DNA of 64,000 nucleotides, from the NCBI GenBank assembly GCA_965215275.1, contig OZ244044.1, positions 1,824,001-1,888,000 on the forward strand, given 5' to 3'. Within the stretch, counting starts at the first letter, position 1. Each line of letters opens with the position of its first letter. The notes below the pieces were generated by a model, which worked only from the letters and a program-made list of their open reading frames with translations, ran no database searches and had not been told where the DNA came from. This document shows, in pieces, positions 9,137 to 64,000 of the stretch. The translations under genes and the position numbers were made by a program. The stretch comes from Thermodesulfobacteriota bacterium (GTDB lineage Bacteria; Desulfobacterota_D; UBA1144; Nemesobacterales; JAJCZQ01).

Positions 9137-10144
9137 TTAATCGTTAGCGCCAATACCTTTTTCTTTTCTGTAAGTGTCAAGGACCTCTCTTTTAACCGTT
9201 GGATGGAGAGTGAAATCATTTGGCGGTGCGCCCTCTGCAGATGCTTTTACCTCTTCAGGTGAGAGATAGCTGAACTTTGTATCTCCAGCTACTTCGCCCA
9301 GTTGTGAAGGTTCAAGTTTCCAGTCCGTTAAAGCTTCATCGCCAAGACCAAATCTCTTTGTGAGTTTGTTGATCTCTTCAAGTCTGCCTGGCAGCGGACC
9401 TTGAGGCTGGATCAGTCTCAGATCTTCAAGGAGTTTCACCGCTTCCGGGTCCCTGCTGAAGGGATTACCAACTCTTTTCTCAAAGAACATGGTCTCAAAA
9501 GGCGGGCGACATCTCTGACCACCGGCTTCCATGCTTTCTGCTGGATACCCTACGGTCATGAGCCAGCTGAACACATAGGTATCGGGCAGGTTGAACTTTG
9601 ACTTGGTATTTCTTCTTGCTCCGCCGCTGGCACCATTAAGGCAGGTTCCCAGTCCCAGTGCCGTAGCTACCAGTGATGCGTTCTGAATGGCATTCCCCAG
9701 ATCAATTCCCGCAAGCCTGTGCATAATTGCGTCAGGCAGCAGACCCGGCAGGGGGAACAGATTTGATACCCTGTCATACTCCCAGCCATGTGCCTTGTCC
9801 AGTGCTCCGGTCCTCATAAGATCATGGATGGATTGTCCCTGTGTGTCATAATTAGCCATATCGTAGCACCAGAAAATAAGCACAGGTGCCATCTGAGTGG
9901 TTATCTGACTCCAGTCCGAGATAAACTCCCATATTTCAGGGTCTTCATCTCTGTATACTACAATTGCTCTCTGACCATTGAAGTTACCTGCTGATGGTGC
10001 AAGCCTGGAAGCTTCCAGCATTGCCTGGATCTTCCATTTCTCAACCTGTTTATTAGGTTCATACCATCTGATGGACCTTCTGGTGCCAATTGCACTGAAA
10101 GTATCCATTACACTAACTTCGCCGGATGAAGGTAAGTTACTCAT
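9137..10144 (-). CDS. Nitroreductase-family protein
   Basis: RRSIRWY, LAPSAGN, ATALGLGTC, VGYPAE; AGGAGG RBS. Confidence 0.88.
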   Translation of the reverse strand: MSNLPSSGEVSVMDTFSAIGTRRSIRWYEPNKQVEKWKIQAMLEASRLAPSAGNFNGQRAIVVYRDEDPEIWEFISDWSQITTQMAPVLIFWCYDMANYDTQGQSIHDLMRTGALDKAHGWEYDRVSNLFPLPGLLPDAIMHRLAGIDLGNAIQNASLVATALGLGTCLNGASGGARRNTKSKFNLPDTYVFSWLMTVGYPAESMEAGGQRCRPPFETMFFEKRVGNPFSRDPEAVKLLEDLRLIQPQGPLPGRLEEINKLTKRFGLGDEALTDWKLEPSQLGEVAGDTKFSYLSPEEVKASAEGAPPNDFTLHPTVKREVLDTYRKEKGIGAND

Positions 10145-10198
10145 TCCATGTTTCCTCCTTAATATTTACGAATTTAATTATAAATCTGTTTAAGTATA

Positions 10199-10227
10199 AT
10201 GATATTGTTTTATGGTTCATTTGTCAA
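10199..10227 (-). promoter_or_regulatory. Sigma70-like promoter of the nitroreductase operon
   Basis: Minus strand TTGACA-17nt-TATCAT. Confidence 0.65.
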
Positions 10228-10242
10228 GATGTAAGTAAATTA

Positions 10243-10398
10243 GGGAATTATAAAGGAAAGTTGACAAGTTTACCTTAACTGTTCCGAGTGCAGAGTTCCT
10301 CTATCCCCGATCTCTTTTGATCTGATACTCTTAGCACTCATCGGGAGTATTTCTACCTTATTCCCACCCGATATGAAGTCTCCTTCATCAAGAGTATT
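10243..10398 (-). ncRNA. Putative omegaRNA scaffold overlapping the tnpB 3' end and the terminal repeat
   Basis: Starts just after the RuvC-III codons; stems ATACTCTTG/TAAGAGTAT, ATGAAG-GAGA-CTTCAT, GAGTGC/GCACTC, AGAG-GAA-CTCT; covaries with the copy at 62818-62978. Confidence 0.7.
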
Positions 10399-11492
10399 GA
10401 TATTTTTACCTGCATTTATGTCCCTGTCTTCTGAATAACCGCAATACATACAGTTAAAAGTCCTGACTGACAGAGGCTGTTTGGGATTTACCTTTCCGCA
10501 TTCAGAACAGGTCCTTGTTGTATAATGAGCTTTAACCAAAACCAGCTTGCCTCCAGCTATCCCGGCTTTGTAAGCAAACTGACGTTTGATCTTGCCCCAT
10601 TGCTGTTCCGTTATGGATTTAGCAAGATGATGGTTCTTTACCATTCCTTGTATATTCAAATCCTCTAATTTTATATGATTACTCTTCTTTACGGTCTCTG
10701 TTGTTAATCTGTGTATAGCATTATTTTCACGATCGGTAGTTCGTTCCCATTCCTTCGCTAACGATAAAACTTTCTTCTTTCTGCTGTCAGAACCTTTTAC
10801 CGCTCTTGAAACAATTCTTTGCTTTCTTTTCAGTTCCTTCCTGTCTATCCTGATACCGGGAATTTTAGTTCCATCTGAAAAAGCTAATCTGTTTGTTATT
10901 CCAAGATCTATTCCTATGGATTTATCCAAAGGTCTCTTCTTCTCATTTGTAAACTCACACAGAAACTGTATCTTTATTCTTAACGAACTCCTGATTATTC
11001 TTATTACAGTTTTAGGTTGCTTTAAAACAACTCCGTCAGGCATACTACCTTTGAAAGATAACCTCCCAGTCCCTTTATCGTTAAATAAGTCCTTCTGCCG
11101 ATCTTTTCAATGTTTTTATAATTGTTTGTTTCAAAACTTCTGACGGGTCTGTTCGGACCTTTATATTTTGGTCTGCCTACCTTTTTTGCTTTCCTGCCAG
11201 CTTTTTTATTCCTTAAATAATTCAGATAGGGACCGTAAGCATTATCCAGCCTTTCCAGAACGCTTCTTTGAGCTACCACGTTAAACTTTTCAAATTCCCT
11301 GTCCTGCTCCCGGACCTCGGTCAGTTCGTTAAACTGCTCGTATTTGGATACGGTTTTTTCATACCAGTCATAAGACCTTAATCTGTGATACAGGGCACCG
11401 TTGTAAAGATCGGTAAGCTGTTGCAGAAATTCATCCAGCCTTTTATGAAATCCACTATCTGCCTTTACAGTTCTTGTAATCGTTCTAACCAT
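10270..11492 (-). pseudogene. tnpB: RNA-guided endonuclease TnpB, split by a 1-nt frameshift near 11064-11067 (about 407 aa if joined)
   Basis: N-half LYNGAL, GRPKYK; C-half GIDLG (RuvC-I), LEDL (RuvC-II), CSECG/CMYCG zinc finger, DRDINA (RuvC-III). Confidence 0.9.
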
Positions 11493-11498
11493 ATAATA

Positions 11499-11527
11499 AC
11501 ATTACCTTTTTCTATTCTGTTTGTCAA
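11499..11527 (-). promoter_or_regulatory. Sigma70-like promoter for a leaderless tnpB transcript
   Basis: Minus strand TTGACA-17nt-TAATGT, then 6 nt to the ATG; no Shine-Dalgarno. Confidence 0.6.
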
Positions 11528-11583
11528 TTTTTTCTTGTTAACTTATTTTTGTCAACTTTTCTTTATAATTCCCGTAAATTACA

Positions 11584-11612
11584 TTTACAAAATATATCAG
11601 TTAGTTTAAAAT
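11584..11612 (+). promoter_or_regulatory. Sigma70-like promoter of the thiolase gene
   Basis: TTTACA-17nt-TAAAAT, upstream of the AAGGAG RBS. Confidence 0.55.
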
Positions 11613-11644
11613 TAAACATAATTTCATCAAGGAGAGACTAGATC

Positions 11645-12805
11645 ATGAGCGACCTGAAAGATGTTTATATCATAGGGGTAGGAAACACGGCCTGCGGAAG
11701 ATTTCCAGACAAACCGGCACATATCCTTGCAAGGGAAGCGGCCTGGGCAGCGATCAAGGATGCCGATATTCATCCCCGGAAAATAGAGATTGCTTTTTGT
11801 GGTCATGTTTATCAGGGTATGGGAGTGGGACAGAGAGCACTTAAGGAGATCGGTCTTGTAGGGCAGCCCACTATTAACGTTGAAGGGGCGTGCGGAAGCG
11901 GAACGCTGTCGTTCTGGGAGGCATGGAGGACGGTGGCATATGGCCAGTACGACATAGCACTTGCTCTGGGCGTTGAGAACCTGAGCAGGGTACTGTCTGG
12001 CGGGCCGTTACCGCTTGAAGAGGACGATCTTGAGGTTTCATTAGGTATGGGCATGCCGGGACTTTACGCGATAAGAGCAAAAAAATATATGGATGAATAC
12101 GGGGTTACGATGGAGCAGCTCGCCAAGGTGGTCGTTAAGAGCAGGTACCATGCTTCACTGAACCCGAATGCACAGTACAGAAAGACCACAACGGTCGAAG
12201 AAGTACTTGGAGCTCCGATGATCGCGGACCCGCTCACGCGTAACATGTGCTGTCCCGTTGGTGATGCAGCGGCAGCGGCAGTGCTCGTTTCGGAAGATCT
12301 TCTGGAAGACTATGCCAAAAAACTGCCGATCAAGGTACTGGGCTGTATTGCTCAGTCAGGTAAGTACAGCAGTGCGACCGGTCTTACGTGTGACCCGTCG
12401 GAGAACGTTGTCAGAACGTCGAAACTGGCGTATGAAATGGCGGGATTAGGTCCTGAGGATATGGACCTGGCCGAGATACATGATGCGTTCTCCATTGCCG
12501 AGATGATGGTCGTGGAAGCACTTGGGTTTTGTGAAAAAGGAGAAGGTGCAACGCTGATCGACGAGGAAAGTACCTGGCTGGGAGGAGATAAGGTTGCCGT
12601 TAATCCAAGTGGTGGCCTGTTGTCTCGTGGGCATCCCGTTGGTGCGACCGGACTGCTGCAGACCGCCGAACTGGTGTATCATCTGAGAGGAGATGCCGGT
12701 GAACGTCAGGTTCCGGACGCCAAGGTCGGTATTATAGAAACAATGGGTGGAGCTCAGCCGGCAATGGATGGTATAACGTGCGTTGTCAGCATACTGGGTA
12801 AATAA
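11645..12805 (+). CDS. Thiolase-family protein (SCP-x / SCP2-thiolase-like)
   Basis: NVEGACGSG, EIHDAFS, NPSGGLLSRGHPVGATG. Confidence 0.9.
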   Translation: MSDLKDVYIIGVGNTACGRFPDKPAHILAREAAWAAIKDADIHPRKIEIAFCGHVYQGMGVGQRALKEIGLVGQPTINVEGACGSGTLSFWEAWRTVAYGQYDIALALGVENLSRVLSGGPLPLEEDDLEVSLGMGMPGLYAIRAKKYMDEYGVTMEQLAKVVVKSRYHASLNPNAQYRKTTTVEEVLGAPMIADPLTRNMCCPVGDAAAAAVLVSEDLLEDYAKKLPIKVLGCIAQSGKYSSATGLTCDPSENVVRTSKLAYEMAGLGPEDMDLAEIHDAFSIAEMMVVEALGFCEKGEGATLIDEESTWLGGDKVAVNPSGGLLSRGHPVGATGLLQTAELVYHLRGDAGERQVPDAKVGIIETMGGAQPAMDGITCVVSILGK

Positions 12806-19277: not shown

Positions 19278-19763
19278 TTTCTGATTTTTCCCAATACAAC
19301 TTCTTATTACTATTATACTTTAAAAATACTCTGTCAGACAAGGATATTTCAAAATATACTGTGGATACCCGAACTGTACCATTATTCGGCAGTACTGCTT
19401 CCGGAGAAAAATTCGGAATGGATGGTCTTGAGATAACGATGTTCATTAGTGAATGGGCAGACAAGGTCAGTTTATTAACTGACCGCTTATATAAGTTTCA
19501 TTTTTAAGAACCGGCATTACTGCGTTGATCTTATCAATAAAGTTGTGTGTATGGAGATGTTTTCTGATGAGAAAGGCAGGTTTGCAGGTTTTATACATGG
19601 CAGAACGGTGATAGTTCGGGTTGAACCGGAGTTAGCGGTAAAGAAAAACAGTGTAAATACAAGGGGCGTAGTCCCAATGTCGTTGTTGTATTTTGGATTT
19701 AATTCAAGGAAAGTCTGGAAAAGGGACTGCCAGATCTTGTGATAGAAAGTCTTACTTGATATG

Positions 19764-20487
19764 TTACTTTCGTGCTAAAAAGATCCGTTCTCCCATCATT
19801 GCTCCAAATTTTATGATCTCTTTATCCGAAAGGAATGTCTCTGGTGTAACAGTTTCCACGTGAAATCCAGCATCGCGTATTCTGTCTATGTAATCTTTTC
19901 CGCATAATCGGACATGAAGACATTCACCAAAGGTTTTGAGGCGTTCTTCAGGGTCAGTTATTGATGGGTCCTCAAATGTTTTTTGAGTTAAGATCGGGAC
20001 TAGTATTACAGCCATGCCGTCATCCTTTAATACTCTGTACAGTTCACTTATAGCTTTTTTATCATCCTGAATATGTTCCAGTACATGACTGCAGATGATC
20101 AGATCGAAAGACCGGTCTGGATATCTGATGTTCGTTATATCCATTTCTACCATCACGTCCCGGTCACTTAGACCAGCGGATAAGTATCCTTTACCAAAAT
20201 ATTCCTTTAACTTTTGTGCAAGGCACACGGCTGGTGCGATATCAAGCACTTTGATAGATGGAATGGGGGGGGGGATATGTCTTTAAAAGGAAAAGGTATA
20301 TCAAGCGATGTCTTTCATAGGAACCGCATGTCGGGCATTTAGCATTTTTACGACTGTTAATGCGATTATTAATGGGAAGAAACTCTCTGGACGATCTTTT
20401 GCATACTGGGCAATACATTTCTTTTCCACAATGATAATATATTGCTTTTAGAACACTAATGAAATATGTACGAATAAGGTGAAGCAT
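19764..20487 (-). pseudogene. Class I SAM-dependent methyltransferase with N-terminal Zn ribbon, frameshifted in a C10 tract (possibly phase-off)
   Basis: ORFs 20242-20487 (CPVC, CPTC) and 19764-20249 (DLIICSHVLEHI) join if G10 at 20265-20274 is G9; intact paralog at 61805-62515. Confidence 0.85.
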
Positions 20488-20878
20488 AGCCGTTCATTCA
20501 AAGTGATAATACATGGTGAAAAGGTAACTAAAATACCGATTTAATACAGATAATGGACCATCTGATCAATGATGAGAAAAAAGGATACTATAGCTCAGTT
20601 CTGAATTTTTGCAATCAGGTCATTGCTGATAACGCCGTATGCTACCTCTTCCACAGGTTTTTATAGACCAGTCTTCTTTTAAAGGTATAGATCTGGTCTA
20701 GCATTTCCAGATTACGCCAAAGCTGAATACCTTACGAAGCTGGAAGAGTGCCAGAAGTCCAGTAAATACAATGGTAAGGACCGTAGTTCCAATGTCGTTG
20801 TTGTATTTTGGATTTAATTCAAGGAAAATTTGGAAAAGGGACTGCCAGATCTTATGATGGAAAGTCTCACTTGATATG

Positions 20879-21025
20879 TTACTTTCGTGCTAAAAAGATC
20901 CGTGTTCCCTTAAATATTCCAAATTTTATGATTTTTTATCCGAAAGGAATATATCTGGTATAATAGTTTCTATGTGAAATCTAGCATCGCATATCCTGTC
21001 TATATAATTTTCCCCGCATATCCGA
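20879..21025 (-). pseudogene. 3' fragment of a third methyltransferase copy
   Basis: Reverse complement ends KFGIFKGTRIFLARK*, like the other two copies. Confidence 0.75.
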
Positions 21026-21036
21026 AATTATTTCTT

Positions 21037-21957
21037 ATGATAACAGTAGTAATCTGCACCTATAACAGAAGAAGTTATTTAAAGAAGGCAATAGATAGCA
21101 TTATCAACCAAACCTTTGACCCTGACCTGTATGAACTGATCATAGTTGATAACAACTCTACCGATGGAACAAAAGATTTTGTTTTAAACAATTACAGTCA
21201 CTCCAGAGTAAAGGTAAGGTATTTGCATGAACCAAACCAGGGACTTTCACATTGTCGGAATACGGGTCTTCGGAACGCAAGTTTTGAATATATAGCATAT
21301 ATTGACGATGATGGGATTGCTTATCCTGACTGGCTTGAAAATATGGCAAAAGGGATAAAGAATCAGAATGAGAAATTTGCTGGAATAACAGGTGCGATAT
21401 TTCCTATATGGGAAATTCCACGACCAAGATGGCTTTTAGATTTAGATAGGTTGACTATGTTTTACTCAATATATTACCCTGACAAAAGGACTGTTATTGG
21501 TTACGGTTATGTTTTTGGCGGAAACATGGTGTGGAAAAAAAGTCTTTTAATAGAATGTGGTGGATTTAATACAAAATTAGGAAGAGTAAAAAACAATCTG
21601 ATATCAGGAGAAGAAAGTCTTACTGCTGAGAAAATAGAAAAAAAAGGATATGAATTCATATACGACCCAAAGATGAGAATAAAGCACCATATTCACAAAT
21701 CCAGAATAAGTATAATGTGGTTAATTAAAAGATCTTTCTGGGGAGGTTATTCACGTATCGCAATGGAAAATATAAAAACAAAAAAAAGCATTTTAGCAAA
21801 GTTCATACAATCGTTTAAGGAGATTAAAAAAGCACTTTATAACCTTGGGTCAGTTCCTAAATCCATTATATTTGAACCGAGGTATTATTTTTTGATTAAA
21901 ATAGTTGACGCTGTAGATTCATTAGGAAGACTCTATGCTTTAGTAATAATAAAGTAA
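21037..21957 (+). CDS. Glycosyltransferase family 2
   Basis: ITVVICTYNR, VDNNSTD, YIDDD; start inferred from the paralog at 25176. Confidence 0.9.
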   Translation: MITVVICTYNRRSYLKKAIDSIINQTFDPDLYELIIVDNNSTDGTKDFVLNNYSHSRVKVRYLHEPNQGLSHCRNTGLRNASFEYIAYIDDDGIAYPDWLENMAKGIKNQNEKFAGITGAIFPIWEIPRPRWLLDLDRLTMFYSIYYPDKRTVIGYGYVFGGNMVWKKSLLIECGGFNTKLGRVKNNLISGEESLTAEKIEKKGYEFIYDPKMRIKHHIHKSRISIMWLIKRSFWGGYSRIAMENIKTKKSILAKFIQSFKEIKKALYNLGSVPKSIIFEPRYYFLIKIVDAVDSLGRLYALVIIK

Positions 21958-22012
21958 CCTTGCGTTTTTTCCAGTCAGTAAAAATATATCTATAGGCTTT
22001 GGTTTTATTACC

Positions 22013-22828
22013 TAATTCATTAAGAATAAAGTTGTTAACTTATACAAAAAACTAATTAAATACTTCAGTATTTACGCCCACTCAAAGTGTTTTTCAATAT
22101 GGTTTTAACCAATAATGCAATAAAAATACCCTCTCCCTCAATCCATTATCAGTCTGATTTCTGTTCCTTCATGTTGTAAAGGACTTCCAGTAATATTGTT
22201 TATATCATCGGTAATTAAAACTCAATAAATTGTCCTTTAGTTGTTAAGAGAGTATAAAAAATTTTTGACCTGTTATCCATTAAGACTATCCCTGAAAATA
22301 TATTGAACTTCCAGAAAAAGGGTATTACGATATGTTTTACCAAGGATAAGGATATTGGTCCTTACACAAAAATTATTTCAACCTTAACACTTTATCCCAG
22401 TGCTATAATCATCCCTGATCACATTATCTGCTCAAGATACAGAAATATGGTAAAAGAGAGTGAAAACTAACTTATACCGTATAACCATTAGACACTTAAC
22501 TATTGGCTCGAAAACTGCAAATCAAAAATACATGAAATTAATTTGTTCTTTAATTCCGGGTTCGGAACTTTATTTTCACCCCAAAGCCTGCCAACTGTAA
22601 CTGTAGATGAAAAGATCTTTACAGAATTAAAGTCCCTATGCGGATGATGTCTGGTTAAACGCCATGAGACTATTGAATAACGTCAAAGTTAGTTACATAA
22701 AGACACCGCAGTATATCTATTTATACGGACATAAAAATAATAGTAAAGCACCTGACACTCTACATAGTATAAACATGAACAGAAAGCAAGTGTTTAACAA
22801 ATATAATCTATACGAACGGATAAATTAG
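22013..22828 (+). pseudogene. Decayed copy of the 26118-27032 glycosyltransferase-like gene
   Basis: Collinear nucleotide similarity to 26115-27032, with multiple stops, indels and an internal deletion. Confidence 0.85.
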
Positions 22829-22846
22829 TCTGTTATAGAGTGATTG

Positions 22847-23812
22847 TTATCGATAGCCAAATAATGATCTGTATATTAACTTCTGCAGACCTTCAGGGAG
22901 AAATCTCTTGAACACATTAAACCATACCCAAGACATGATTCTGAATAACAGAAAACTTTGTAATCTTCTATGCTGGACTTCTAAATTATTATATTGGGTT
23001 TTCAAATCTCTATTTTCAACCCACCATCTTCTATTTTGGACTGTAGTACTATTAGTTTTCAGATGTTTTGCGGTCATAACCTTCACCCAATGTTTTTCAT
23101 ATAACTTTCTGTGTTTATTTATAATATAAGCATAATAGATATCTGATTTACTGATATTACTCAAATACAATGAATTTTTATGTACTCTATAGTTAAATAA
23201 ATATTCAGGTATTACTTTTATTTTCCATCCATCTTTAGCTATGTTTATCCAGTGCTCCCAGTCTTCATGATTCTTCAAATTTTCATCATACATCCCCACT
23301 TTAACGGATGCTTCTCGTCTGAAACAGGACGATGGTATTATATAACACCATGTTAATATCCTAACTAAACTCGTATTGCCTTTGCTATAACTACGCTTGT
23401 CAACAATATCTCCAAACATATTAAAAAAAGGAGCTACTATCCCAACATCTTTATAGTTTTCAAACACATTCCTTGCTTTCTCTAAATAGGTCGGTTCCAA
23501 ATAATCATCCCCATCAAGACAACATATATATTCAGAGTCTGCCTTCTTTATACCTTCATTACGAGCTGCTGAAACTCCTCTGTTTTTATCCAGTTTTATT
23601 AAGTGAACATTGTTTGAAATCTCATTCAGAACCTTGATCGTCTCAGGGTCGTCCGAGCGATCATCAACTACTATCAATTGCACGTCCTGCAATGTTTGAC
23701 CAAGTACCGAGTTAATTGCCTTCTTCAGCAATTTCCCTTTATTGTAAGAGGTAATTACTACCGTGAACTCGTATACAGATAAACTTCTTGAATTATAACT
23801 GTTTCGTCCCAT
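22847..23812 (-). CDS. Glycosyltransferase family 2
   Basis: VVITSYN, VDDRSDD, CLDGDD, HEDWE. Confidence 0.9.
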   Translation of the reverse strand: MGRNSYNSRSLSVYEFTVVITSYNKGKLLKKAINSVLGQTLQDVQLIVVDDRSDDPETIKVLNEISNNVHLIKLDKNRGVSAARNEGIKKADSEYICCLDGDDYLEPTYLEKARNVFENYKDVGIVAPFFNMFGDIVDKRSYSKGNTSLVRILTWCYIIPSSCFRREASVKVGMYDENLKNHEDWEHWINIAKDGWKIKVIPEYLFNYRVHKNSLYLSNISKSDIYYAYIINKHRKLYEKHWVKVMTAKHLKTNSTTVQNRRWWVENRDLKTQYNNLEVQHRRLQSFLLFRIMSWVWFNVFKRFLPEGLQKLIYRSLFGYR

Positions 23813-24749
23813 GAGATTTTATAAAAAAATTTTTAACCTTCCTGTGTACCCAGTAAGTTATTAATCTGTCTAAAAATAGGTTAAACTTTACTAAATATCC
23901 TTTATTTATTGGATTACTGTTCATTGTATAACTAAAACTAACTATAGATGGGTACTTCAGAGTTAATATATAAGATAAATGTCTATTCCTCTGTTTCTTT
24001 GATAATATATGTTTTAAATTATTATAGTAATTATGAAATAAAACTAATTCCGGATCATAAAGAAAAGAATCCTTGTCATATCCATAGAACTCAACCATTC
24101 TAAAACACAAAAATGTACCCTCGTGTCCCACCATACCATCCTCAAAACCTCCCACCTCAATAAAATCCTTCCTCTTGAACATTGAGACACATTCAGCATT
24201 TATACAGCAAGGAATAACTTCATCTCCTAAATCATAATGACACGGTTCAATTCTAATCAAACCGGTATGGATCTGTTTTACCTTACCTCTAATTGCCACT
24301 AATTTAGCGTCATTCATCAGAACTTGAACCTTATCAAACGCTATGTCCACGTCTTCAAGATAACCATCGGCATCAACAAAAAAAATAACGGGTGCATTGC
24401 AGTATAAACTCCCTATGTTCCTTCCCGTTCCACATCCCACGTTTTTATTCATAACAATATGCTTTAGGGAATAGGACCGTAACTTCTCTTTAGCTGGTTC
24501 GGATAGACCATTATCAACAACTACTATTTCATACGACCCTGATTTGGCACATGTTATAGAACTCAACGCTCTGAATAATAACTCATCTTCATTATAAACA
24601 ACCAGCAAAAAACTTATCCAGGGCTCTTGGATATCTTGCAAATTATATGAATTAACCTCTTCTATACTATCACTATACTTTTCTATTGAGAGCGGTGGCT
24701 TTTTATGCTCTAATTTTAAATCGAGATAATCCTTGAGGTTGTTTTTCAT
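23793..24749 (-). CDS. Glycosyltransferase family 2
   Basis: LLVVYNE, VVDNG, GRNIG, FVDADG, VGGFED. Confidence 0.88.
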   Translation of the reverse strand: MKNNLKDYLDLKLEHKKPPLSIEKYSDSIEEVNSYNLQDIQEPWISFLLVVYNEDELLFRALSSITCAKSGSYEIVVVDNGLSEPAKEKLRSYSLKHIVMNKNVGCGTGRNIGSLYCNAPVIFFVDADGYLEDVDIAFDKVQVLMNDAKLVAIRGKVKQIHTGLIRIEPCHYDLGDEVIPCCINAECVSMFKRKDFIEVGGFEDGMVGHEGTFLCFRMVEFYGYDKDSFLYDPELVLFHNYYNNLKHILSKKQRNRHLSYILTLKYPSIVSFSYTMNSNPINKGYLVKFNLFLDRLITYWVHRKVKNFFIKSHGTKQL

Positions 24750-24769
24750 TTTAACAAAGTCGGTGTATT
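23949..24769 (-). repeat. 821-bp inverted repeat, apparently identical to 63145-63965
   Basis: Both ends and the internal segments I compared match the reverse complement; constant offset, so no net indel. Confidence 0.9.
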
Positions 24770-24915
24770 GTTCTGCCTAACTGTAAATAGTGATAGTAAT
24801 ATCTGTATCCCAGAACAGTATGCATAATTATATATAAATCCTGAAAAGTACATTATGACGGTACAATTTCTACTTTTCATTTCAATCCCGTGGCAAACAT
24901 GGTGTTTTTAGCTGA

Positions 24916-25140
24916 GAGAACAAAACTTTGTTTCATGGAGACAATTTAGATTTTGTACGAGCAATGAATAGTAATAGTGTAGATATAGTAAAAACAGACA
25001 CACCTTTCAATAAAAGCAAAGACTTTTCTGCTGACAGAGCAGTATGGTTTCTGAAGCAAAGGTTTCAGTATAGATGGTCTTGGGATGACTCTGTTCATGA
25101 AAGGTGGTAAGACAAGACCGCTGATAACTTTTCTATTATG
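24916..25140 (+). pseudogene. N-terminal remnant of an N6/N4 DNA methyltransferase
   Basis: ENKTLFHGDNLDFVRAMNSNSVDIVKTDTPFNK (degenerate DPPF motif IV), internal stop, truncated. Confidence 0.7.
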
Positions 25141-25162
25141 TAAAGTTGCGTATATAGTTCCC
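25138..25162 (-). mobile_element. Orphan IS1595-like terminal repeat
   Basis: ATGTAAAGTTGCGTATATAGTTCCC matches the tnpB-element TIR at 17/25; followed by TAATTTAC. Confidence 0.55.
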
Positions 25163-25175
25163 TAATTTACTTCTT

Positions 25176-26102
25176 ATGATAACAGTAATAATTTGCACCT
25201 ATAACAGAAGAAGTTATTTAAAGAAGGCAATAGATAGTATTATCAACCAAACCTTTGACCCTGACCTGTATGAACTGATCATAGTTGATAACAACTCTAC
25301 CGATGGAACAAAAGATTTTGTTTTAAACAATTACAGTCACTCCAGAGTAAAGGTAAGGTATTTGCATGAACCAAACCAAGGGCTTTCACATTGTAGGAAT
25401 ACGGGACTTCGGAACGCAAGTTTTGAATATATAGCATATATTGACGATGATGGGATTGCTTACTCTGACTGGCTTGAAAATATGGCAAAAGGAATAAAAG
25501 ACCAGAATGAGAAATTTGCTGGAATAACAGGTGCGATATTTCCTATATGGGAAATTCCACGTCCAAGGTGGCTTTTAGATAAGTGGCAGATTGCTATATA
25601 TTACTCAATATATAAACACCGTGACAAAAGAATTGTTATTAGTCGAGGTGTCAAGATAGGTGTTTTTGGCGGAAACATGGTGTGGAAAAAAAGTCTTTTA
25701 ATAGAATGTGGTGGATTTAATACAAAATTAGGAAGAGTAAAAAACAATCTGATATCAGGAGAAGAAAATTTTACTGCTGAGAGAATAAAAAATAAAGGAT
25801 ATGAATTCATATACGACCCGAAAATGAGAATAAAGCACCATATTCACAAATCCAGAATAAATATAAAATGGTTAATTAAAAGAGCTTTCTGGGGAGGTTA
25901 TTCACATATAGCAGCAGAAAATATAAAACAAAGCGTTTTAACAAAGTTCATACGATCGTTCAAGGAGATCATAAGAGCACTTTTTCACATTGGGTCAGTT
26001 CCTGCTATCATTATATTTAAACCAAGATATCATTTCCTGATTAACATAATTAACGCTGTAAATTCATCAGGAAGGATCTATGGTTTGTTGAGAATTAAGT
26101 AA
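25176..26102 (+). CDS. Glycosyltransferase family 2 (paralog of 21037-21957)
   Basis: First ~135 aa nearly identical to the 21037 copy. Confidence 0.92.
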   Translation: MITVIICTYNRRSYLKKAIDSIINQTFDPDLYELIIVDNNSTDGTKDFVLNNYSHSRVKVRYLHEPNQGLSHCRNTGLRNASFEYIAYIDDDGIAYSDWLENMAKGIKDQNEKFAGITGAIFPIWEIPRPRWLLDKWQIAIYYSIYKHRDKRIVISRGVKIGVFGGNMVWKKSLLIECGGFNTKLGRVKNNLISGEENFTAERIKNKGYEFIYDPKMRIKHHIHKSRINIKWLIKRAFWGGYSHIAAENIKQSVLTKFIRSFKEIIRALFHIGSVPAIIIFKPRYHFLINIINAVNSSGRIYGLLRIK

Positions 26103-26117
26103 TCTTGGTTTTAACCT

Positions 26118-27032
26118 ATGTTCATGGAGAATAAAGTTGCTAACTTATTTAAAAGACTAATTAAACACTTTAGTACCTATGTCCACTTAAAGTTTTTAAA
26201 TATGTTTTCAACCAATAAGGCAGTAGCCAATATACCTTCTTCAATCCCACCCATTATTATCAGCCTGACCTCTATCCCTTCACGTTTTAAAGAACTTCCA
26301 ATAGTGCTTGAAAGTTTATGCCATCAGTCAGTAAAACCCGATAAAATTATCCTCTGGCTGTCAAAAGAGTATAAAAATAAAAAGTTTGGTCATTTGTCCA
26401 TGAAAACTATCCCTGAAAATATACTGAACTTTCAGAAAAGGGGTATTACAATACGTTTTACGCAGGACATCGGGCCTTACACAAAAATCATTCCAACCCT
26501 GAAACTTTATCCCAATGCCGTTATCATAACCGTCGATGACGACCTTATGTATAAACCAGACCTGGTAAAGTATTTATATGAAAAACACCGGCAATTACCT
26601 GATCATATTATCTGCTCAAGATACAGAAATATGGTCAAAAAGAATGAAAACGAACTTATACCTTATAACAATTGGGAACTCAACTGCTGGCTTGAAAACT
26701 GCAAATCAAAAATACATGAAACTAATTCGTTCTTTAATTCCGGATTCGGAACTTTATTTCCACCTCAGAGTCTGCCAACTGTAACTGCAGATGAAAAGAT
26801 CTTTACAGAATTAAGTCCCTATGCGGATGATGTTTGGTTAAACGCCATGAGATTACTGAACAACGTCAAGGTCAGTTGCATAAAAAAGCCGCAGTATATC
26901 TATTTATACGGACATAAAAATAATAGCAAAGCACCCGACACTCTACGTAGTATAAACATGAACAGAAAGCAAAACGATATTCAGTTAAAGCAAGTATTTG
27001 ACAGATATGATCTATACGAACGGATAAATTAG
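26118..27032 (+). CDS. Glycosyltransferase-like protein (GT-A fold)
   Basis: IISLTSIPSR, DIGPYTKIIP, ITVDDDLMY, ADDVWLN. Confidence 0.8.
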   Translation: MFMENKVANLFKRLIKHFSTYVHLKFLNMFSTNKAVANIPSSIPPIIISLTSIPSRFKELPIVLESLCHQSVKPDKIILWLSKEYKNKKFGHLSMKTIPENILNFQKRGITIRFTQDIGPYTKIIPTLKLYPNAVIITVDDDLMYKPDLVKYLYEKHRQLPDHIICSRYRNMVKKNENELIPYNNWELNCWLENCKSKIHETNSFFNSGFGTLFPPQSLPTVTADEKIFTELSPYADDVWLNAMRLLNNVKVSCIKKPQYIYLYGHKNNSKAPDTLRSINMNRKQNDIQLKQVFDRYDLYERIN

Positions 27033-27050
27033 TCCGTTATGGAGTGATTG

Positions 27051-27968
27051 TCATCTATAGCTAAATAATAATCTGTATATTAACTTCTGCAGACCTTCAG
27101 GGAGAAATTTCTTGAACACGTTAAGCCATACCCAAGACATGGTCCGGAATAACAGGAAACTTTGTAATCTTCTATGCTGGACTATCAAGTTACTAGTTCG
27201 CCGATGTTTTGCGGTTACGACCTCAACCAAATGTTCTTCATATAACTTTCTGTGTTTATTTATAATATAAGCATAATAGATATCTGCCTTACCAATATTA
27301 CTCAAATGTAATGAATGTCCGTGCACTCTGATATTCACTAAATATTGCGGTATTACTTTTATCTTCCACCCATCTTTAGCTATGTTTATCCAGTGCTCCC
27401 AATCTTCATGATCCCTCAAATTCTCATCATACATACCTACTTTAACGGATGCCTCTCGTCTGAAGCAGGATGGCGATATTATATAAAACCATGTTAATAT
27501 CCTAACTAAACTCGTATCACCCATGCTATGACTACGTTTGCCAGTAATATCTCCAAACACATTATAAAAAGAAGCTACTATTCCGACATCTTTATCATTT
27601 TCAAATACGTTCCTTGCTTTCTCTAAATAGGTCGGTTCCAAATAATCATCCCCGTCAAGACAACATATATATTCAGAATCCGCGTTCCTTATACCTTCAT
27701 TACGAGCTGCTGAAACTCCTCTGTTCTTATCCAGTCTTATTACGTGAACATCTTTTGAGATCTGGTTCAGAACCTTGATCGTTTCAGGGTCGTCCGAGCG
27801 ATCATCAACTACTATAAGTTGCACGTCATGCAACGTTTGACCAAGGACCGAGTTAATTGCCTGCTTCAGCCATCTCCCTTTGTTGTAAGAGGTAATTACT
27901 ACGGTGAACTTAAACCCGTAAGATAGTTTATTTGAATTTGAACCGTTATATTCTTTGACAGCCTTCAT
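27051..27968 (-). CDS. Glycosyltransferase family 2 (paralog of 22847-23812)
   Basis: Same motifs and high identity to the 22847 copy. Confidence 0.9.
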   Translation of the reverse strand: MKAVKEYNGSNSNKLSYGFKFTVVITSYNKGRWLKQAINSVLGQTLHDVQLIVVDDRSDDPETIKVLNQISKDVHVIRLDKNRGVSAARNEGIRNADSEYICCLDGDDYLEPTYLEKARNVFENDKDVGIVASFYNVFGDITGKRSHSMGDTSLVRILTWFYIISPSCFRREASVKVGMYDENLRDHEDWEHWINIAKDGWKIKVIPQYLVNIRVHGHSLHLSNIGKADIYYAYIINKHRKLYEEHLVEVVTAKHRRTSNLIVQHRRLQSFLLFRTMSWVWLNVFKKFLPEGLQKLIYRLLFSYR

Positions 27969-61207: not shown

Positions 61208-61804
61208 CAGATGATTATATGAAAACTGGTTTATAGGAAAAGAAAACTCATCCGCAGAATGTAGCTATATACCAGTTCTTTTCAACAAACTAATAATTAA
61301 TATAAAAAACCAAGCTATAAACTTTCTAGGCTTGCCATTAATAAGGATATATAGATCTTTTCCATTGAAAACATACACTATTTGACGTCATTCTTCCAGC
61401 AATGACCGATAGGCATGTTACTTGAAAAATTAGTTTTTTTTCAACGCCTTTAAAGGAATCACATCACCATGTTTTTATGTGAGACATTACTTCCGTTCAT
61501 CGTTTGGCATTGGAGTCACAATTGCTGTTATTCGTATCTTGGCCTTCAACATCATTCGTTCGTCAAGTTCAAGACTAGGCAAAAACTGCTTCGACCTTCA
61601 TGAAAATGTATTGAAGTTCAGATAAAAAAGACCTGTGGAAGAGGTAGCATAAGGCGTTATCGGCAATGACTTGCTTGCAAAAATTCAGAAATGAGCTATA
61701 ATATTTTTTTCTCATCATTAAACGATTCATATAAAATACTATCTATATTAAACTGATATTTTAGTTATGTTTTTACCATTTATTATCACTTTGAATGAAT
61801 AACT

Positions 61805-62515
61805 ATGCTTCACCTTATTCGTACGTGTTTCAGTATTGTTCTAAAAGCAATATATTATTGTGTAAAAGGAATGTATTGCCCAGTATGCGAAAGATCATCC
61901 AGAGAGTTTATTCCTATTAATAATAGAAAAAATGTTAAATGCCCAATATGCGGTTCCCGTGAAAGGCATCGCTTTTTATATTTTTTCCTTTTAAACATAT
62001 ATCTTACCCCCCCCCTTCCATCCGTAAAAGTGCTTCATATTGCCCCAGAGGTGTGCCTTGCACAAAAGTTAAAGGAAAAGTTTGGTAAAGGGTACTTGTC
62101 CGCTGGTCTAAGTGACCGAGACGTGATGGTAGAAATGGATATAACTAACATCAAATATCCAGACCGGTCTTTTGACCTGATCATTTGCAGTCATGTACTG
62201 GAACATATTCAGGATGATAAAAAAGCTATAAGCGAACTATACAGAGTACTAAAGGATAACAGCATGGCTATAATACTATTTCCGATCTCAACTCAAAAAA
62301 CATTTGAGGACCCATCAATAACCGACCCTGAAGAACGCTTCACAACCTTTGGTCAACATAATTATGTTCGGATATGCGGAAAAGATTATATAGACAGAAT
62401 ACGCGATGCTGGATTTCACGTGGAAACTGTTACACAAGATATACTTTTTTCGGATACGGAGATTATAAAATTTGGAATACCTAAGGGAACACGGATTTTT
62501 TTAGCACAAAAATAA
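61805..62515 (+). CDS. Class I SAM-dependent methyltransferase with N-terminal Zn ribbon (in frame through a C9 tract)
   Basis: CPVC/CPIC, VLHIAPE, DLIICSHVLEHI; C9 at 62007-62015. Confidence 0.9.
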   Translation: MLHLIRTCFSIVLKAIYYCVKGMYCPVCERSSREFIPINNRKNVKCPICGSRERHRFLYFFLLNIYLTPPLPSVKVLHIAPEVCLAQKLKEKFGKGYLSAGLSDRDVMVEMDITNIKYPDRSFDLIICSHVLEHIQDDKKAISELYRVLKDNSMAIILFPISTQKTFEDPSITDPEERFTTFGQHNYVRICGKDYIDRIRDAGFHVETVTQDILFSDTEIIKFGIPKGTRIFLAQK

Positions 62516-62778
62516 CATGCCAAGTGAGACTTTTCACCATAAGATCTGGCAGTCTCTTTTCCAAATTTTCTTTGAATTAAATCCAAAATACAACAACGAC
62601 ATTGGGACTACGACCCTTACCCTTGTATTTACTAGACTTCTGGCACTCCTCCAGTTTCGTAAGGTCTTCGGTTTCGGCGTAGTCTGGAAATGCTAAATCA
62701 GATTTATAACTTTAAGAGAAGACTGGTCTATAGAAATGAAAGGATCTGTGGAAGAGGTAGCATATTTAATTAATCAGT

Positions 62779-62807
62779 TTGGCAAGTAAATAGCAATTAG
62801 TTATATT
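62779..62807 (+). promoter_or_regulatory. Sigma70-like promoter directly upstream of the orphan omegaRNA-like scaffold
   Basis: TTGGCA-17nt-TATATT; scaffold homology starts 11 nt later. Confidence 0.5.
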
Positions 62808-62813
62808 AAAACT

Positions 62814-62978
62814 AATGAATATTCTTATATAAAGGAAACTTTATATGGGGTGGGACAGCTAAAATGGGGAATAACGCTCCCGATGGTTGCTAATAATATT
62901 TAAAACAGAAGGGAATTGAGGGACTCTGTACTCATAACGATATAGGTAGATTTTTGTCAACTCTCCCATATAATTCCC
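62814..62978 (+). ncRNA. Stand-alone omegaRNA-like scaffold ending in the tnpB-element terminal repeat
   Basis: Collinear homology to the reverse complement of 10243-10398; compensatory stem changes; TIR at 62954-62978 matches 21/25; no tnpB ORF upstream. Confidence 0.68.
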
Positions 62979-63086
62979 TTTCTATGGAAGAGGTAATGGA
63001 TGCTATATTTGTTAAACAAAAGGCTATTATCAAGGCAAGAAAACTTAAAAATAAATTAAAAGTTAATGATAACAAGTAGTTAGAGC

Positions 63087-63111
63087 TTTTGGGTAATTAA
63101 ATATAGTCCCC
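63087..63111 (-). mobile_element. Possible orphan IS1595-like end of a different subtype
   Basis: Reverse complement GGGGACTATATTTAATTACCC; similarity to the 24.8-kb GT upstream region begins immediately beyond it. Confidence 0.4.
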
Positions 63112-63164
63112 TTATTATTATCACTATTTACGGTTAAGCATAATAATACACCGACTTTGTTAAA

Positions 63165-64000
63165 ATGAAAAACAACCTCAAGGATTATCTCGATTTAAAA
63201 TTAGAGCATAAAAAGCCACCGCTCTCAATAGAAAAGTATAGTGATAGTATAGAAGAGGTTAATTCATATAATTTGCAAGATATCCAAGAGCCCTGGATAA
63301 GTTTTTTGCTGGTTGTTTATAATGAAGATGAGTTATTATTCAGAGCGTTGAGTTCTATAACATGTGCCAAATCAGGGTCGTATGAAATAGTAGTTGTTGA
63401 TAATGGTCTATCCGAACCAGCTAAAGAGAAGTTACGGTCCTATTCCCTAAAGCATATTGTTATGAATAAAAACGTGGGATGTGGAACGGGAAGGAACATA
63501 GGGAGTTTATACTGCAATGCACCCGTTATTTTTTTTGTTGATGCCGATGGTTATCTTGAAGACGTGGACATAGCGTTTGATAAGGTTCAAGTTCTGATGA
63601 ATGACGCTAAATTAGTGGCAATTAGAGGTAAGGTAAAACAGATCCATACCGGTTTGATTAGAATTGAACCGTGTCATTATGATTTAGGAGATGAAGTTAT
63701 TCCTTGCTGTATAAATGCTGAATGTGTCTCAATGTTCAAGAGGAAGGATTTTATTGAGGTGGGAGGTTTTGAGGATGGTATGGTGGGACACGAGGGTACA
63801 TTTTTGTGTTTTAGAATGGTTGAGTTCTATGGATATGACAAGGATTCTTTTCTTTATGATCCGGAATTAGTTTTATTTCATAATTACTATAATAATTTAA
63901 AACATATATTATCAAAGAAACAGAGGAATAGACATTTATCTTATATATTAACTCTGAAGTACCCACTTATAAAAAATTTTTGTCATTATTATGTAAATAA
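63165..64000 (+). CDS. Glycosyltransferase family 2, partial; duplicate of 23793-24749 with a different C-terminus
   Basis: Matches from MKNNLKDY to LTLKYP, then LIKNFCHYYVN (open to the window end) versus SIVSFSYTMNS. Confidence 0.9.
   Translation, partial: MKNNLKDYLDLKLEHKKPPLSIEKYSDSIEEVNSYNLQDIQEPWISFLLVVYNEDELLFRALSSITCAKSGSYEIVVVDNGLSEPAKEKLRSYSLKHIVMNKNVGCGTGRNIGSLYCNAPVIFFVDADGYLEDVDIAFDKVQVLMNDAKLVAIRGKVKQIHTGLIRIEPCHYDLGDEVIPCCINAECVSMFKRKDFIEVGGFEDGMVGHEGTFLCFRMVEFYGYDKDSFLYDPELVLFHNYYNNLKHILSKKQRNRHLSYILTLKYPLIKNFCHYYVN

Follow-up and report, generated by a model that had tools for sequence, protein, structure and literature searches.

A tnpB gene between IS1595-type ends

The window, that is the whole stretch of 64,000 nucleotides analysed here, carries a tnpB gene enclosed by inverted ends of IS1595 type and flanked by an 8-bp duplication (Table 1). 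The encoded protein contains the PF01385 and PF07282 domains, with the RuvC motifs GIDLG, KLEDL and EDRDINA. TnpB scores of 164-251 bits against NF040570 lie above the cut-off of that model (100), and the scores against the models specific for IS200/IS605 (NF038281, 154-205 bits, cut-off 425) and IS607 (NF038280, 93-115 bits, cut-off 350) fall far below theirs. tnpB is the only gene between the TIRs, and a DDE transposase of its own is absent, which distinguishes the element from an autonomous IS1595. Likewise, the presence of TIRs and of an 8-bp TSD, together with the lack of a TnpA, separates it from IS200/IS605 elements (hairpin ends, Y1 TnpA, neither TIR nor TSD), and the TSD separates it from IS607 elements (serine recombinase, core dinucleotide, no TSD). 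It has the traits of a non-autonomous IS1595 derivative, namely TIRs common to IS1595-transposase elements and an 8-bp AT-rich TSD, as well as those of an RNA-guided (OMEGA) TnpB: the domain set, a TAM-like motif 5' of the left end and, from comparative evidence only, a structured RNA with a pseudoknot. The right TIR is identical at 24 of 24 positions to that of an IS1595-transposase element in another genome (L218 in G060) and at 23 of 24 to the one at G000:17470 in the source genome, G000. The latter contains 28 matches to the IS1595 transposase (PF12762), many of them inside ends of the window's TIR type.

Relatives of the element in the source genome comprise seven full-length sisters (85-89% DNA identity) and one internally deleted copy. 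The window tnpB lacks an intact reading frame, and the seven sisters each have tnpB in one frame. A programmed frameshift was discarded, the window copy alone being split among eight, and so was an assembly error: the same allele is found in a contig of another study (X5 record 13) that spans the site without a difference, and the break is therefore real. The RNA of the window copy could thus work only with a sister TnpB acting in trans. The D-E-D triad of RuvC and the zinc finger motifs are kept in all five sister TnpBs that were translated, and a dN/dS of 0.17-0.31 (five of the seven sisters compared) indicates purifying selection.

Table 1. Observed and predicted features of the window
Feature	Positions	Strand	Remarks
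tnpB-only non-autonomous element, IS1595-type ends, 1,331 bp	10243..11573	-	inverted arms 10243-10279 / 11537-11573; 8/8 TSD
tnpB, frameshifted	10270..11492	-	two ORFs; 1-nt deletion near 11069; stop codon 27 nt before element end
Right TIR (tnpB sense)	10243..10268		predicted 3' strand of pseudoknot in outer five bases
Left TIR	11548..11573		one mismatch to right TIR across outer 18 nt
8-bp TSD GTAAATTA, copy at RNA end	10235..10242
8-bp TSD GTAAATTA, copy at left end	11574..11581		first base 11581 (T, minus strand) may belong to TAM
Predicted TAM core (A)TG, immediately 5' of left TSD	11582..11584	-	G at -1 in 42/42 clean copies; present at G001 empty site
Predicted guide, host flank from TSD base 1 (10242) or base 2 (10241)	10223..10242	-	conservation drop at element end
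Predicted omegaRNA scaffold	10243..10390 (5' limit approximate)	-	overlaps tnpB 3' end, reaches last TIR base; 59 right ends aligned
Loop GGGAA, predicted 5' strand of pseudoknot	10361..10365	-	columns 49-53 vs 178-182 paired in 94.6% of cells
Terminal hairpin, spacer 10269-10278 with TIR positions 9-17	10251..10278	-	contains first ten bases of the guide that would start after GTCAA
Second, decayed omegaRNA-like copy, ends in TIR, without tnpB	62830..62978	+	72% identity over 147 nt

Distribution of the family

In the source genome, 19 tnpB elements in such ends were catalogued and divided into subfamilies A (which includes the window copy), B, C and D. Of the 36 genomes of genus g10, which belongs to the same order, 23 contain relatives, and none was found with the same query in four genomes of the same family (80-99% complete). 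From 159 gathered loci, 68 distinct ones passed the TIR score; with the copies of the source genome these gave 63 A-lineage elements (9 from G000, 54 from relatives), of which 42 have a TSD of 7/8 or better, the window copy having 8/8. In a quick tree, used for grouping only, A, B, C and the relatives form one group (SH-aLRT 100), and D as well as a further lineage, E, fall elsewhere.

Lineage E (L238-L267 and L014-L029, genus g10) is a second, distant TnpB lineage inside IS1595-type ends. Its loop UGGGAAU can pair with a terminal AUUCCC followed by a flank A, which is found in 18 of 18 cases. Lineage E is likely an independent capture that arrived at the same solution. In the sister TnpB group, a tnpB element of about 1.2 kb (L048) lies between different inverted ends (GGTAGTGT...) with an apparent 8-bp duplication; the CACTAC end of that group may itself be a TIR, in which case TIR hosting would predate the capture by IS1595 ends.

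The TIR as predicted end of an RNA scaffold

The RNA 3' sequence quoted in the preliminary description is genuine and corresponds to the reverse complement of window positions 10223-10271. The evidence for the existence of such an RNA is comparative. Published TnpB RNAs have a pseudoknot directly before the guide (PMC10711439, parts covered), and the right ends of the family suggest a similar arrangement. We aligned 59 of the 70 available right ends and found that 90.4% of the cells of 21 named pairs are standard pairs, compared with 83.5% in shuffles and 29-53% when slid. The helix formed by the spacer (after GAACAG) and TIR positions 9-14 shows two-sided changes in five of its six pairs and is 82% paired. 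Cognate arms have a mean folding energy of -4.3 kcal/mol (56 distinct tails of 70) versus -1.6 kcal/mol for 2,208 swaps, and among 26 arm types 3.69 of 5 pairs are Watson-Crick versus 2.70 +/- 0.15. The count of pairs changed on both sides does not exceed the shuffle control (121/500), and kin in the alignment are not independent. The window sequence taken singly folds no better than shuffles (z = -0.45), a plain RNAalifold consensus of the mixed alignment is weak (-3.1 kcal/mol) and no Rfam family matches positions 9900-11900 (0 hits at E up to 1). G-U pairs overwhelmed an all-against-all column scan, which was excluded.

The hairpin helix always leaves the last 8 nt unpaired, and the final five of these complement the loop GGGAA. 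Two pairs of this putative pseudoknot between GGGAA and the terminal UUCCC are invariant, two-sided changes are found in 1 and 3 cells, and 13 of the 59 sequences do not form the fifth pair; its support thus comes mostly from invariance, with covariation from few events. In the nearest TnpB group without IS1595 ends the loop reads GTAGTG and the end CACTAC, and L058 has a compensated pair with both sides changed, which argues that loop and element end evolve together.

The two RNA copies of the window bear on the same stem. Their TIRs differ at TIR positions 11, 12, 16 and 26, and it had been noted that the differences fall inside the outer 18 nt, which is true for three of the four (11, 12 and 16). 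Those at 11 and 16 are compensated in the upstream spacer (U-A to A-U and U-A to C-G, respectively), and the one at 12 becomes a mismatch. Compensated differences of this kind suggest a paired scaffold stem rather than a guide.

A guide within the TIR had nevertheless been considered: with a scaffold ending at GTCAA, the outermost 18 nt of the TIR would serve as a fixed guide directed at IS1595-like ends. TCAA is a common terminus of IS605 right ends; the length of the segment suits a guide, variation within the element end is highest at TIR positions 11-17, and the window segment has 24 matches (up to 3 mismatches) in the source genome, mostly in TIRs. However, TCAA precedes the segment in 28 of 63 copies only (TCTA in 21, TGTA in 8), it is also present in 9 of 29 TnpB-free TIRs, and it is the reverse complement of the TIR's own TTGA. 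The variation of the segment, which is paired in the covarying hairpin, is compensated in the spacer and mirrored in the left TIR (8.1/10 versus 5.4 between elements), as would be expected for a transposase site. Moreover, 26 of 63 copies have 0-1 mismatch between the segment and the left TIR of the same element, and 46 of 63 have an identical 5-nt context there, so that an active nuclease could not separate self from other; because the sisters keep the RuvC triad under purifying selection, such a guide would expose the element's own ends. We therefore regard a TIR-derived guide as extremely unlikely.

A scaffold ending further inside, at the ancestral GAACAG(TA) (10279-10284), with the spacer and the inner TIR as guide, is suggested by the alignment of GAACAGTA with GACACTAC/GACAGTAC at the terminus of the nearest TnpB group without IS1595 ends, after which cross-family identity falls. 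It seems very improbable, as this guide would be a self-paired hairpin and the loop is now GGGAA, complementary to the TIR end (central pair in 54/59, outer two in 59/59). The reading that we favour, a scaffold that includes the whole TIR, implies that the guide would be host flank starting at the TSD.

A one-sided G outside the left end

A guide taken from the flank predicts a TAM at the far side of the element, and a guide taken from the TIR predicts nothing there. Among the copies with a clean TSD (at least 7/8; 42 of 63 in the A lineage), G stands directly 5' of the left TSD in 42 of 42 and at the mirror position on the right in 8 of 42. When shared sites are merged by flank similarity, G occupies -1 at 40 of 40 independent sites, with TG (26), GG (9), CG (3) and AG (2) as the dinucleotides at -2/-1. 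A further 21 copies were set aside because their TSD is not clean; 19 of them have the G at the default or at a 1-nt-corrected boundary. The two others are A3 and L082, and the latter has an 8/8 TSD after a 1-nt shift, with A at -1. Both guides lying within the element end, whether in the outer TIR or in the spacer and inner TIR, leave this G unexplained.

Same-end elements that lack tnpB are mostly without this G. As controls we used 27 TnpB-free TIR elements with a clean TSD (11 from G000 and 16 from relatives, two nested duplicates having been removed from 29): G is present at either end in 7 of 27 (Fisher p 1.5e-11 versus TnpB copies), a comparison in which the controls are few and their transposases may differ from those that moved the TnpB copies. 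Oriented by the transposase, they have G in 4/24 cases on the left and 3/24 on the right. Among controls sharing at least 22 of 24 TIR bases with a TnpB element, two of nine have the G. L218, the TnpB-free element whose TIR equals that of the window copy, has C and A at the two flank positions.

These few controls, together with the broken window copy, leave some room for a transposase absent from our sample that has a one-sided target preference of its own, the RNA being no longer functional. We find this very unlikely: the G is kept across at least seven TIR subtypes and is missing from seven of nine controls with the same TIR, sister tnpB genes are under purifying selection and the scaffold covaries. 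A second TnpB lineage in IS1595 ends of the same genomes has another motif, which argues that the motif tracks the nuclease: in lineage E (18 clean copies of 29, same genomes and ends), position -1 is split between A and G (9:9), G occupies -2 in 13/18 and A is the first TSD base in 18/18.

The preliminary description had proposed AAATG (minus strand, 11582-11586) as the TAM of a precise empty site, which is too long, since nothing past -2 is fixed and only the G at -1 (40/40) and, mostly, a T at -2 (26/40) are conserved. Its other suggestion was TTTAC, the end of the first TSD copy, which would serve as TAM if both TSD copies remained. DDE excision can indeed leave both copies. TTTAC is not a motif, because TSD positions 4-8 have no base above 53% in the 42 copies, as in the controls, and the conserved base lies outside the TSD; this variant is hardly credible.

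The empty site and the predicted start of the guide

In the congener G001, the nitroreductase and thiolase genes are present without an intervening element. The site consists of ATG, one TSD copy matching at 7/8 positions and the right flank, and it matches the predicted 20-nt guide at 18 of 20 positions. As the ATG is already in place at this empty site, the motif is host sequence that predates the insertion. In eight DNA runs searched for an empty allele, no joint skipping the whole element was found, and an IS1595 excision restoring a one-copy empty site was not found described in the literature examined.

Matches to the 16-nt flank guides of the 19 elements in the source genome are confined to the elements' own flanks, where they are preceded by CCC. 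The window guide has one further match in G000, of 11 nt, preceded by CTT. At a solo TIR in the window (25139-25172), with a glycosyltransferase-like ORF just after it, the outer flank has 10 nt (TAATTTACTT) in common with the predicted guide; at this solo TIR (25162) the shared flank is preceded by CCC, which is not a TAM. The region's best promoter-like site (10199-10227, 11/12) lies upstream of the nitroreductase gene and overlaps the distal part of the predicted guide.

The left-side G at 40 of 40 sites and the G001 empty site support the first of the two registers proposed earlier, a guide from the flank starting at the TSD and aimed at the empty site, and we hold a flank-derived guide, all variants taken together, to be highly probable. 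The proposal that this guide begins with the TSD stands as regards its origin in the flank; the start may lie one base later, because TSD base 1 is constrained by TnpB clade. Over 63 copies, conservation is 95-100% at positions -3 to -1 and 56% or less from +1 onward. TSD base 1 is T in 16/16 right flanks of subfamilies A, B and C of the source genome, which have several TIR subtypes (controls 8/22, p 3e-5), and T in 10/12 of one clade of relatives (controls 5/32); it is A in 21/22 of the remaining relatives (controls 21/32, p 0.017). This base tracks the protein tree better than it does the TIR subtype (FastTree, support values not considered), and part of its bias could come from the transposase. 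The balance tips slightly to a guide that starts at TSD base 2, with TGT as TAM and, as in IS607, a scaffold that takes up one flank base; a start at TSD base 1, with TG as TAM, has somewhat less than an even chance.

Possible sorting or steering of insertions

We read the anatomy of the element, the ends that it shares with transposase elements, the one-sided G, the covariation of TIR and spacer and the empty site of the congener, all of them observed, as follows. It is likely that the whole TIR forms the last part of the scaffold, that the guide is host flank from the 8-bp TSD and that TnpB cuts the empty site beside TG(T). An IS1595 transposase would move the element in trans. Transcription would run through tnpB and the TIR, the transcript would be trimmed 15-20 nt into the flank, and the pseudoknot between GGGAA and the terminal UUCCC would form. 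TnpB would then cut alleles that have an adjacent TAM and match the guide, i.e. the empty site, and repair would copy the element in. The filled site would be self-protected, since the guide match there follows CCC and not a TAM.

The motif is most likely the product of sorting after insertion, TnpB filtering which insertions persist: copies that landed beside a TAM would cut empty alleles and be copied in (homing), and others would be lost more often. As elements with the same ends but no TnpB do not select G, sorting accounts for the motif most simply. Against it stands the size of the enrichment, as G must rise from about 15% to near 100%. Such near-total, one-sided occupancy across many TIR subtypes speaks for a different scenario, in which the TnpB-RNA complex, before or during integration, helps the IS1595 transposase to choose TAM sites and orientation, and the TG beside broken or deleted copies (the window copy, A8mite and L107) points the same way. 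On the other side, no TnpB-transposase fusion or operon was seen, L082 is a possible insertion without G and sorting by homing requires no new biochemistry, so that we consider such steering unlikely. If true, TnpB would do more than clean up as a nuclease: together with an RNA that carries the end sequence of the transposase, it would direct an otherwise indifferent IS1595 transposase to TAM-flanked sites in a single orientation, which would make the system a minimal TnpB-assisted DDE transposon.

Sorting after insertion thus remains our preferred explanation, and the value of the system is that the TAM is apparently not supplied by the transposase. In IS605 and IS607 the transposase itself chooses the TAM, and conservation of the TAM is therefore uninformative on the natural role of TnpB. 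Here, elements with the same ends and no TnpB ignore the motif and TnpB copies lie nearly always beside it, which amounts to a natural experiment and bears on why cut-and-paste elements keep TnpB. The system also places two constraints on one 26-bp stretch, transposase site and predicted RNA scaffold, and leads us to expect compact nucleases whose TAM is very short.

Relation to known TnpB systems

Both the association of TnpB with DDE elements and a motif located 8 bp beyond the element end are already in print. In the parts covered, Altae-Tran et al. 2023 (PMC10691335) describe TnpB branches associated with DDE transposases (DDE-1 to DDE-6) as well as solo TnpB with matching ends, and one line of the supplement gives a TA motif 8 bp upstream of the element end for DDE-5 systems. 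Like these branches, the window element has TnpB between inverted repeats with its 3' end near the element end, and would be moved in trans. The 8-bp geometry of DDE-5 is the same, with TA there and G or TG here; the two lineages, compared by description only, may be identical. Within those parts of the paper, IS1595 appears only in the list of search models, and RNA structure, register and a transposase control are not given. According to a 2026 review (PMC13565253, in part), TnpB on DDE elements is rare, with ISL2, IS630 and IS1031 as partners, and its benefit is open. No description of TnpB in IS1595 ends was found in the literature searched, which includes few subscription papers.

A loop-guide-proximal pseudoknot and a TIR within the RNA are likewise described for the IS607 element ISXfa1 and for Fanzor2*/Fanzor1 in TIR transposons (Yoon et al. 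2023, PMC10711439, parts covered). A flank base that is fixed in IS607 is part of the scaffold and lies outside the guide, and a flank base or TSD can be absorbed (PMC10711439, same parts); in Fanzors the TSD goes into TAM and scaffold (PMC13565253, in part). The difference is that in IS607 and Fanzor systems, as far as PMC10711439 was covered, the transposase fixes the TSD or core base, which enters TAM and scaffold. In the window lineage, by contrast, the 8-bp TSD varies, the guide seed would include seven or more of its bases and the main base of the TAM is located beyond the TSD. Restorative homing by IS200/IS605 (PMC13565253, in part) likewise uses a right-flank guide, a left TAM and the empty site as target. 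However, IS605 has neither TIR nor TSD and its transposase selects the TAM (same parts of the review), whereas the window lineage has IS1595-type ends and elements with the same TIR do not select G. Finally, the IS1595 element ISEc69 (PMC7835479, in part) has similarly short TIRs and 8-bp AT-rich duplications; the window element differs from it in having no transposase, in its tnpB cargo and in an end that doubles as predicted RNA scaffold.

Other copies and neighbouring sequences

In subfamilies C and D of the source genome (e.g. C1:202418-203706 and 735945-737502), A lies directly outside the left TSD in 5/5 clean copies. Subfamily D has TA at this place in 3/3, like the DDE-5 remark in the supplement of PMC10691335 (one line), which is too few against an AT-rich background. 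Downstream of the match, L008 and L009 have TnpB/Cas12-like genes followed by short direct repeats resembling CRISPR arrays.

Some sites have a more complex history. For copy A6 (G000:C1:1441464), a contig of another strain (run X6) has the identical left flank but a left TIR of the window subtype, and L079/L128 and L005/L106 have common sites with different TIR subtypes. Shared sites with differing TIR subtypes reflect either a swap of element bodies or ends at occupied sites or repeated hits of the same TAM sites.

No partner TIR was found for the decayed RNA copy at 62830..62978 of the window. The sequence behind it (62979-62995) resembles, at 14 of 16 nt, the stretch at 62744-62760, which lies 220 bp upstream and recurs inverted at 20638-20656; the likeness of 62744-62760 and 62979-62995 is probably a relic of local duplications. 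Tandem and inverted duplications (79-99% identical) of glycosyltransferase-like and methyltransferase-like genes occupy 19661-27466 and 61627-63986, with IS1595-type ends nearby. Elsewhere in the source genome the RNA region is present in at least eight further copies that are decayed or lack tnpB (G000:C1 494676, 655990, 767682, 794444, 1484859, 1742862, 1790312 and 1953603), and the one at 1742862, of 326 bp, retains TIRs, an 8/8 TSD and the TG.
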